Shown one piece after another: positions 3,041 to 4,048 of a DNA stretch of 7,759 nt (position 1 is the stretch's first letter; each line of letters begins with the position of its first letter). The notes under the pieces are model-generated. The model ran no database searches. It saw only the letters and a list, made by a program, of their open reading frames with translations, and had not been told where the DNA came from. The stretch lies in the IMG/VR virus record IMGVR_UViG_2609459834_000008; one strand, written 5' to 3'. Made by a program: the position numbers and the translations under genes. This DNA is from a virus. Its lineage: Duplodnaviria > Heunggongvirae > Uroviricota > Caudoviricetes.

Positions 3041-4048
3041 ATGAAAAAAATACTATCAGTTTCCTTCTTTCTCATTGCCTACAGCGTGTATATTAAAATA
3101 GCTAATGCAGATGATTTAAATGAAAAACAATATGTTACTGTAAACATGCCGGACGAAATCGTGAGAGTTCAATATGTATACACTCCAAATGAAGATAGAG
3201 TAATTGAACTTTCGCGTGTTGGACTTAACAAACTTTTTTCTTTTTCCAAATTATACAAAATTTATTCAGTACAAGATGCTATCTATCAAAGTGGAAAAAT
3301 GAATAATCTTTCAACAGTTCAAGTATTCGACACTGATATAATCGGCCCAATTATGGTTAGCGCAGAAAATAATGAAAATGGGGATGATCCAATAGCTGCG
3401 TTCACAGGTGGCTGGCATGGATTTAACCGGGACCAGAGCGGATCACCTACAGCCAGGCATGTTTCTCTTCAGGTATGGGTTGACGGGAAGATGGTCAAAG
3501 ATACCTTTAAGGGATATACAAATGATTTAGTGATTGAAACCACATCTAACATCCAGGGATTTAACACCAAAAAGAAAGACGGATCCGGTAGAGAGATTAT
3601 TCAACAGAAAGTAAAAATGACCTTCAATGAAGGACGTGCAGATGTGCATATCAAAATGACTCCTCTTGAAAAGGTGAGGATACACACTTACTACGGACTA
3701 CAAACAGCACTTTCCCAACTGTATGCCAACAGTTCAATTCGTTATGAATCAGGCGACTCTCCAGAATGGAAAGATACCTCCAGCGGACCAAATGATAGTG
3801 GACCTAAGGGTAAATATCCAAATGTTTACCGCATGACGGCAAAGAACAAGCATAATGATGAAGTTTTGGTATGGTTAGACACAAAATACGGATTAGGGAA
3901 AAGATTAAATGTGAGTGATAAATATCCTTCTGCTTTCTTTGTTGGATATAAAAGTTACTTCAATTTAATAAATGGTGTTCCTTTAATTTTATCTACAGGA
4001 CAATCGGCGGAAGTTCACGGGGGCTTAGAGTGGATAAGATCAAATTAA
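3041..4048 (+). CDS. Hypothetical secreted/periplasmic protein (335 aa), function unknown
   Basis: ATG at 3041 with an AGGT Shine-Dalgarno-like motif about 10 bp upstream. Classic Sec signal peptide (MKKILSVSFFLIAYSVYIKIANA then DD, an AxA cleavage site). No cysteine in the protein, so not a lipoprotein. Lys/Asn-rich and AT-rich codon usage. No family recognised from memory. Confidence 0.8.
   Translation: MKKILSVSFFLIAYSVYIKIANADDLNEKQYVTVNMPDEIVRVQYVYTPNEDRVIELSRVGLNKLFSFSKLYKIYSVQDAIYQSGKMNNLSTVQVFDTDIIGPIMVSAENNENGDDPIAAFTGGWHGFNRDQSGSPTARHVSLQVWVDGKMVKDTFKGYTNDLVIETTSNIQGFNTKKKDGSGREIIQQKVKMTFNEGRADVHIKMTPLEKVRIHTYYGLQTALSQLYANSSIRYESGDSPEWKDTSSGPNDSGPKGKYPNVYRMTAKNKHNDEVLVWLDTKYGLGKRLNVSDKYPSAFFVGYKSYFNLINGVPLILSTGQSAEVHGGLEWIRSN

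Follow-up and report, generated by a model that had tools for sequence, protein, structure and literature searches.

We analyzed a 7,759-nucleotide (nt) stretch of viral DNA (Caudoviricetes; IMG/VR record IMGVR_UViG_2609459834_000008), hereafter the window, and found that a gene at positions 3041-4048 on the plus strand, encoding a protein of 335 amino acids (aa) with an export signal, is linked to the specificity of a prophage tailspike rather than to the kind of O-antigen modifier beside it. With moderate confidence, we interpret this 335-aa protein as a periplasmic factor that is directed at the O-antigen, acts in lysogenic conversion or superinfection exclusion, and derives from a phage receptor-binding domain. 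The evidence comes from the export signal, the predicted fold, the family membership, the purifying selection on the gene, the architecture of the cassette, and the independence from the neighboring AT3 acyltransferase. In E. coli, Salmonella and Citrobacter, prophage O-antigen conversion shapes the serotype, the recognition by the immune system and the susceptibility to phages, and its textbook toolkit consists of acetylation (AT3), glucosylation (GtrABC) and polymerase switching. As judged from the sequences, the arrangement would be of a known kind, a prophage O-antigen conversion cassette, and its new element would be an uncharacterized component from a family without a database model. This third, exported component keeps its place next to a particular tailspike specificity, whereas the modules for acetylation and glucosylation replace one another.

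The gene was found in a cassette of constant order in more than 12 contexts: intS, holin or thrS, then the 335-aa gene, then AT3 or gtrABC, and finally the tailspike gene on the opposite strand. The unit, composed of the 335-aa gene, a modifier slot and the convergent tailspike receptor-binding domain, moves between two phage backbones. As in a conversion cassette, the gene lies beside the tailspike gene at the prophage end or lysis boundary, on the same strand as the modifiers, and shows a foreign base composition; the GC content of the prophage segment that includes it is 30-38%, while that of the flanks is 47-55%. The C-terminal 597 aa of the tailspike were 90-92.6% identical wherever its gene was full-length (tailspikes of 700-909 aa), and this held for N-termini of both the P22 type (Head_binding) and the epsilon15 type (Tail_spike_N), in E. 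coli, Salmonella and Citrobacter. The outer neighbors of the 335-aa gene varied, being intS, holin/lysis genes, thrS or dacD. Among 5426 complete E. coli genomes, 10 (six strains) carried the 335-aa gene, and both the eight genomes with this tailspike type and the six with the AT3 gene fell within these 10. The two carriers without the tailspike were two assemblies of one strain in which the prophage is broken by insertion sequence (IS) elements.

The modifier between the two genes proved exchangeable. The 335-aa gene lies upstream of AT3 in the window, in epsilon15-like prophages of E2348/69 and Salmonella, and in IMG/VR contig L078. It lies upstream of gtrA-gtrB-gtrC, without AT3, in E. coli CM2010-0578/1, 23AR0998 and 2017.01.04CC, in several contigs of Citrobacter freundii, and in IMG/VR contig L079; the loci at which gtrABC takes the place of AT3 are L059, L060, L062, L063, L066-68 and L079. 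The copies that precede gtrABC in E. coli and Citrobacter prophages were 80-94% identical to the window gene. Between AT3-type and gtr-type cassettes, the identity was 97.6% as far as the final codons of the 335-aa gene; homology ends there and begins again in the tailspike gene, about 78 nt in from its 3' end. These breakpoints at the 3' ends of two convergent flanking genes point to a clean cassette exchange. Neither the N-terminal nor the C-terminal allele relationships of the 335-aa gene followed the division into AT3 and gtr types. The modifier slots compared were 4142-5215 in the window, 8224-11127 in L062 and 8202-11105 in L063, and the gtrA-gtrB-gtrC operon is annotated with DUF6056 / GT_STM0557_N.

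The open reading frame (ORF) starts with ATG, with an AGG 9-11 nt upstream. The N-terminus of the protein reads MKKILSVSFFLIAYSVYIKIANA, followed by DD, and consists of a KK n-region, a hydrophobic core and an A-N-A cleavage motif, with cleavage predicted by sequence rules (A-x-A site). No lipobox ([LVI][ASTVI][GAS]C) was found at the end of the signal peptide of the window protein, as the protein has 0 Cys. Lys (8.1%) and Asn (7.2%) are present at about twice the E. coli average, in keeping with a GC content of only 31-38% in the gene. These features agree with the earlier note on this DNA, which had described a cysteine-free, Lys/Asn-rich secreted protein with a signal peptide and no lipobox. 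That note had also placed the gene directly upstream of AT3 with no terminator between, and this too was borne out: the only strong hairpin that we found lies at 5219-5236, none that is terminator-like lies in the 93-nt gap, and a search for a plus-strand terminator 3' of the 335-aa gene in three contexts found none. The two genes are thus probably co-transcribed, as predicted from the sequence.

Full-length, intact ORFs were present in nine enterobacterial orthologues, among which the ratio of nonsynonymous to synonymous substitution rates (dN/dS) was 0.11-0.27 overall and mostly 0.07-0.21 in the C-terminal 240 codons, which indicates a real gene under purifying selection. The first approximately 95 codons (window 3041-3325) fall into three strongly divergent allele types, with a dN of approximately 0.25-0.43 (window versus L001, L012, L063, L066 and L069). 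These types are combined in various ways with the conserved C-terminal part, a sign of recombination within the gene, and the signal peptide is kept in all three. The E2348/69 and Salmonella allele reads FIIIAC followed by T, which fits a lipobox, whereas the window allele has Tyr there; some alleles may therefore encode lipoproteins, and localization may differ between alleles. One IMG/VR variant of the protein is truncated at residue 321.

The 335-aa protein had no match in Pfam (E<=1), PHROGs or NCBIfam, and no Pfam domain covered the shared region in any of 28 aligned relatives. Among PDB sequences, neither the single sequence nor the family profile found a match. A profile search of 1.84 billion cluster representatives, in contrast, revealed 1386 members, 889 of them with E-values below 1e-30, and the homologues number in the thousands. 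Most matches were the last approximately 300 aa of proteins of 450-1285 aa, with profile E-values of 1e-65 to 1e-110. The other domains of these long members include BppU_N (seven in all), Phage_tail_fib, Phage_fiber_rpt, Mtd_N and SLH, and further fusions comprise DUF4855 with or without F5/8-type-C and one dockerin/Ig protein. A search with a 75-sequence alignment of long members gave only four matches, as the heterogeneous N-termini dominated; the search for related loci was run with a 9-sequence alignment. Homologues lie in the tail modules of an SPbeta-like phage (L009), of a rumen phage contig (L010) and of the Pseudomonas putida phages DDSR119 (L057) and Meara.

Judged by these profile matches, the 335-aa protein is a true homologue of uncharacterized C-terminal domains of phage tail fibers and baseplate proteins. 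Among them are the C-terminal domains of BppU-type receptor-binding proteins of Gram-positive phages, which sit behind BppU_N, Phage_tail_fib or Mtd_N N-termini. In contrast, the 335-aa protein is detached from a virion-attachment module, has gained a signal peptide, and occupies the lysogenic-conversion slot, which is typically expressed from the prophage. Most short family members likewise carry signal peptides or lipoboxes. In DDSR119, gp23 (L057, 3513-7061) is an 1182-aa tail protein encoded downstream of TipJ-like host-specificity proteins; it contains the family domain at roughly aa 400-730 and a C-terminal GDSL/SGNH esterase at aa 1010-1171, a combination that suggests a tail-borne polysaccharide deacetylase using the family domain.

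Conservation was counted over 192 aligned family sequences, mostly below 35% identity. The near-invariant set consists of D99, P103, F121-T-G-G-W-H126, T137, Q172, N175, E210, Y217, Y218, Q221, K304 and Y306, and the window protein retains all of these residues. D99 and P103 were each kept in 188/188 sequences, G123 and G124 in 192/192, H126 in 191/192, T137 in 190/192, Q221 in 186/191, and K304 and Y306 in 187/188 each; these nine are kept in at least 97% of the 192 sequences and in every architecture. N175 and Y218 were each kept in 181/191 and E210 in 170/191. Since this polar set is near-invariant although the receptors must differ, it is more likely to form a catalytic site or to bind a common ligand than to be the variable surface of a lectin. 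For a very large family without a database model and with so strikingly conserved a polar site, characterizing one member would annotate thousands of proteins.

To describe the predicted fold, we built an AlphaFold2 model on 28 sequences, which had a pLDDT (predicted local distance difference test) of 88.6 and a pTM (predicted template modeling score) of 0.85. The model shows a low-confidence N-terminal helix (residues 4-21) and then, starting near residue 30, a confident domain; helices are confined to that of the signal peptide and one of 4 residues, the rest being all-beta. The top fold matches were all beta-supersandwiches, and the structural likeness over most of the domain points to a galactose-mutarotase-like supersandwich. 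The match scores were 15.8 for GH174 endo-1,3-fucanases, 15.6 for a PL26 rhamnogalacturonan lyase, about 15 for beta-galactosidase domain 5, 13-14.7 for many aldose 1-epimerases, which are equal in size, 12.3-13.0 for the YidC P1 domain, 12.2 for PL4, and 11.8-12.5 for the periplasmic glucanases OpgG/OpgD. Many of the matches are non-catalytic accessory domains, and those in BFVD are long phage tail proteins.

According to the models, the family would share its fold, and not its family membership, with aldose epimerases, GH174, GH186, PL4 and PL26. By sequence, the 335-aa protein did not belong to GH174, GH186, PL4 or PL26, and Pfam Aldose_epim matched neither the window protein (E<=1) nor any of 28 members (E<=0.1). 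The aldose 1-epimerases and galactose mutarotase-like proteins (3OS7, 3MWX, 1L7J and E. coli YphB, 3NRE) also differ in setting: mutarotases are cytoplasmic monosaccharide enzymes, whereas the family is exported or placed at the tip of phage tail fibers, and a mutarotase of monosaccharides would have little use in either place. OpgG/OpgD (GH186, periplasmic beta-1,2-glucanases of E. coli and Xanthomonas) show no sequence similarity to the 335-aa protein, have larger chains (487-504 aa in the match tables), and are encoded by chromosomal housekeeping genes, whereas the 335-aa gene is prophage cargo. GH174 (PDB 8JD7, 9K1G) is a glycoside hydrolase family with an unusual beta-sheet fold (PMC12534559), so that catalysis by such a sandwich has precedent. 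However, the identity in the structural alignment was 5-7%, the GH174 substrate is a sulfated fucan, a substrate and biology unlike those of the 335-aa protein, and the key residues reported for GH174 are the carboxylates D119, E120 and E218 (PMC11943901), in contrast to the invariant D/H/T/Q/K/Y set (a comparison of residue types).

The three-layer alpha/beta/alpha fold of SGNH enzymes was not seen, the model being all-beta. Models of GDSL/SGNH (block I Ser, block III Asn, block V D-x-x-H) did not match the protein in Pfam, PHROGs or NCBIfam, nor did those of Pfam match 27 homologues, in line with the statement of the earlier note that no GDSL-type block could be recognized. Compared with the SGNH domains of the AT3-SGNH O-acetyltransferases OafA, OafB and OatA, the 335-aa protein is likewise predicted to be extracytoplasmic and likewise belongs to an O-antigen modification locus; it is, however, adjacent to AT3 and not fused to it, has a different fold, occurs with gtrABC where AT3 is absent, and is missing beside relatives of the AT3.

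The same note had paired the 335-aa protein with AT3 as its periplasmic partner. Such a partner could take the acetyl group or present the O-antigen acceptor in place of the SGNH domain of OafA/OafB-type enzymes or, more broadly, could act as an acceptor-presenting adaptor for both AT3 and GtrC. The same-strand position directly upstream with no terminator agrees with such a role, as do the presence of the gene in 6/6 E. coli genomes with this AT3, the fusion of the family domain to an esterase in DDSR119 gp23, and a few GDSL genes that adjoin distant homologues. A review leaves open whether AT3-only proteins need a partner, "SGNH or otherwise", but concludes that they probably act alone (PMC9558356). 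Against the pairing, gtrABC follows the 335-aa gene without AT3 in at least five strains or contigs, the cassette junction falls at the 3' end of the gene, its alleles do not co-vary with modifier type, and the all-beta model has no Ser-His-Asp esterase blocks. Co-occurrence with AT3 in other genomes, which had been proposed as a check, also failed to appear, as AT3 was present at 0/43 distant loci in GTDB genomes (Bacteroidota, Firmicutes) and was absent from three Firmicute contexts of homologues. A phmmer search with the window AT3 gave matches in enterobacterial loci only, Acyl_transf_3 was not among the 25 most frequent Pfam families in 127 neighboring proteins, and the multi-transmembrane neighbors examined at distant loci were all transporters or kinases. 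Conversely, the nearest AT3 relatives, at 48-52% identity (C. werkmanii, E. coli and C. freundii; L072-L076), belong to three other prophage contexts, in which hmmsearch --max detected no member of the family up to 6 kb away (best E=0.65). Because of the gtrABC contexts, the AT3-free distant loci, the partner-free AT3 relatives and the alleles that do not track the modifier, a dedicated partnership is not supported, and we regard it as improbable; for this AT3 lineage at least, the neighboring, predicted periplasmic protein is probably not the missing partner of an AT3-only enzyme. The wider suggestion of the note, that the role was open and could be glycan-binding or something new, is still viable without the dedicated transferase partner and is strengthened.

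It is unlikely, though less so, that the 335-aa gene is an unrelated, hitch-hiking "moron" (lysogenic-conversion gene) for a secreted glycan-binding or glycan-degrading protein outside O-antigen biology, concerned with dietary or host glycans, peptidoglycan, periplasmic glucans or colonization, and kept in place by a recombination hot spot. In favor of this, morons are classically found between the integrase or lysis genes and the tailspike, periplasmic glucans are the substrate of OpgG/OpgD, whose structure is similar, and the distant homologues lie mostly in catabolic loci, where the glycosidase-like DUF4855 (13) and DUF4434 (10) proteins recur as neighbors, along with oxidoreductases and sugar transporters; modifier exchange could also have used the 335-aa gene and the tailspike as mere homology arms. 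However, the gene moves with the same tailspike receptor-binding domain across two unrelated backbones and three host genera while its outer neighbors change, the pair is kept despite recombination inside and around the module, and the gene is present in 8/8 E. coli genomes that have this type of tailspike. It is highly improbable that the gene is what remains of a decaying phage receptor-binding protein and now serves no function. Its homology to tail-fiber C-terminal domains, the IS-flanked, degraded prophage of the window and the truncated IMG/VR variant would fit such decay, but the intact orthologues with their low dN/dS, the gain of a signal peptide that three divergent allele types have kept, and the retention of every near-invariant family residue argue against it.

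For the conversion or exclusion factor that we favor, the following course can be proposed. The Sec signal peptide would export this prophage moron protein to the periplasm, where it would recognize the same O-antigen as the linked tailspike and bind or cleave it at the periplasmic stage, on O-units linked to undecaprenyl pyrophosphate or on the polymer. This would provide an additional receptor-altering or superinfection-exclusion function that is independent of AT3. The target would be an O-antigen that is independent of the phage backbone, specific to the host surface and recognized by the linked tailspike. The near-invariant D/H/T/Q/K/Y set, together with the precedents of GH174 and GH186, leads us to favor an enzyme modestly over a lectin; points for a lectin-like role are Gln189 and the position of the domain at tail-fiber tips. 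A polysaccharide lyase or C5-epimerase mechanism was considered for the His/Tyr/Lys/Gln set and is not preferred, as the O127 repeat is not known to contain uronic acid. A more specific version, which we put forward only tentatively and consider rather unlikely, is that temperate phages have redeployed a detached receptor-binding or depolymerase-type domain, equipped with a signal peptide, as a periplasmic O-antigen-processing enzyme that trims or cleaves the receptor glycan during assembly.

Several points weigh against an O-antigen-directed factor. Position 189 is Glu in 153/192 family sequences and Gln in the window protein and 36 others, so that, if Glu189 were catalytic, the enterobacterial clade would bind rather than cleave. 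The evidence for the O-antigen as target consists of the linkage to the tailspike and to O-antigen modifiers only, and this tight linkage could in part reflect the use of the two flanking genes as recombination arms. The enterobacterial clade is also shallow (78-100% identity), and its contexts do not amount to many independent events. Moreover, a periplasmic location gives no evident path to mature surface lipopolysaccharide, and PADLOC models did not match the 335-aa protein; nor did they match AT3 or the tailspike fragment.

Were the 335-aa protein a periplasmic O-antigen-processing enzyme, it would represent a third kind of lysogenic conversion or superinfection exclusion beside acetylation and glucosylation. 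If it is an enzyme at all, its relatives would form a large unclassified carbohydrate-active family of at least 1386 clusters, present in phage tail fibers and in Bacteroidota glycan-utilization loci.

Like gtrABC of P22/SfX, oac of Sf6 and the three-component modules of epsilon15 and D3, the 335-aa gene lies in the slot that has the tailspike on one side and the integrase or lysis genes on the other, is low in GC content, and is on the strand of the gtr/oac-type genes. Conversion modules of several components have been described for epsilon15 and D3, and the known extra components, Iap and Wzy-beta, are membrane proteins, whereas the 335-aa protein is a predicted exported supersandwich; to our knowledge, no described conversion module holds such a protein. 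Iap of epsilon15 is mentioned in the report on phage Kapi1, which documents that unexplained O-antigen conversions exist (PMC8787464). If the 335-aa protein acts on the O-antigen, this would be a new mechanism that may explain conversions such as that of Kapi1 (PMC8787464). The unidentified conversion genes of Kapi1 are nevertheless not homologous to the 335-aa gene, as a tblastn search of the phage collection gave no match to them; hyp24 of Kapi1 was rejected as a homologue on the same search, which matched two Pseudomonas putida phages only.

Two further roles tied to the tailspike were considered and rejected. The 335-aa domain is not a tailspike paralogue, as hmmsearch found exactly one family copy per locus, and a role as a tailspike assembly chaperone does not agree with a signal peptide that sends the protein to the periplasm, since tailspikes fold in the cytoplasm. 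In the IMG/VR prophage contigs L080 and L081 (5001-6052), a deletion has taken out the AT3 gene together with the final 14 codons of the 335-aa gene, and what is left of the latter ends 83 nt from the tailspike stop codon. We rejected these contigs as a natural stand-alone arrangement without a modifier because the deletion also cuts these codons, and they were not used as evidence.

The window consists of E. coli DNA with IS1, sbmC and dacD, then a low-GC prophage remnant, and then an IS5-family (ISKpn26-like) element from about 7100 to 7759, which abuts the tailspike gene and has removed its N-terminal part. The contig has IS1 at its start and IS5 at its end, so that repeats probably interrupted the assembly. 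Although the prophage is degraded, the 335-aa gene and the AT3 gene are both intact. The features are listed in Table 1. From 2805 on, the window aligns at 92% with the region between intS and the 335-aa gene in P22-like prophages (L061, L062), and the spacer between the 335-aa gene and AT3 shows 88.5% homology with E2348/69, unbroken over its whole length. The terminator is a perfect GC-rich hairpin, GCGGGGTAATAACCCCGC, with a 7-bp stem of which six pairs are GC, and T runs on both strands. In the tailspike fragment, the C-terminal 597 aa (receptor-binding/enzymatic part, 5244-7034) are intact, and the N-terminal virion-attachment domain is lost to IS5. This C-terminal domain has no characterized relative, its best phage matches being 30%-identical proteins of Vibrio phages.

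Table 1. Features of the window around the 335-aa gene, and a gene cluster with a family member at a distant locus (L030).
Feature	Position	Strand	Remarks
Conserved non-coding region upstream of the 335-aa gene, probable promoter and ribosome-binding site region	2805..3040	+	AGG at 3030-3032
Predicted signal peptide, aa 1-23, MKKILSVSFFLIAYSVYIKIANA	3041..3109	+	cleavage by signal peptidase I predicted after ANA
Mature domain, aa 24-335, and stop codon; galactose-mutarotase-like beta-supersandwich	3110..4048	+	predicted fold
Spacer between the 335-aa gene and the AT3 gene, 93 nt	4049..4141	+	no terminator-like hairpin
Stand-alone AT3 O-acyltransferase, 357 aa	4142..5215	+	Pfam PF01757, E=2.9e-35; phrog_3333 O-acetyltransferase, E=6.4e-72
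Bidirectional intrinsic terminator, common to the AT3 gene and the convergent tailspike gene	5219..5236	.	sequence hairpin
Tailspike gene fragment	5241..7106	-	phrog_22294, E=8.6e-122; phrog_1640
Same-strand DUF4855/DUF4434 cluster	L030, 1848..8282		similar in L025-L029, L037, L038, L041, L048

The chromosomal homology on the dacD side ends at about 2543. The approximately 260 nt from there to the intS-proximal prophage homology (2543-2805) contain only a doubtful 78-aa ORF at 2588-2824, and this segment may hold a remnant of an attachment site or integrase.

With regard to the distant homologues, we also observed a conserved same-strand cluster in Prolixibacteraceae, Draconibacterium and Sunxiuqinia, with the order GFO/IDH/MocA oxidoreductase, DUF4855, DUF4434, family member and MFS (major facilitator superfamily) sugar transporter; elsewhere, DUF4855 is fused to the family domain (P0045, P0048). 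The cluster looks like an uncharacterized glycan-catabolic pathway, and no functional study of DUF4855, DUF4434 or mutarotase-like receptor-binding proteins of phages turned up in a literature search. In Prevotella (L021) and Vallitaleaceae (L024), family members were found inside surface-polysaccharide biosynthesis clusters.

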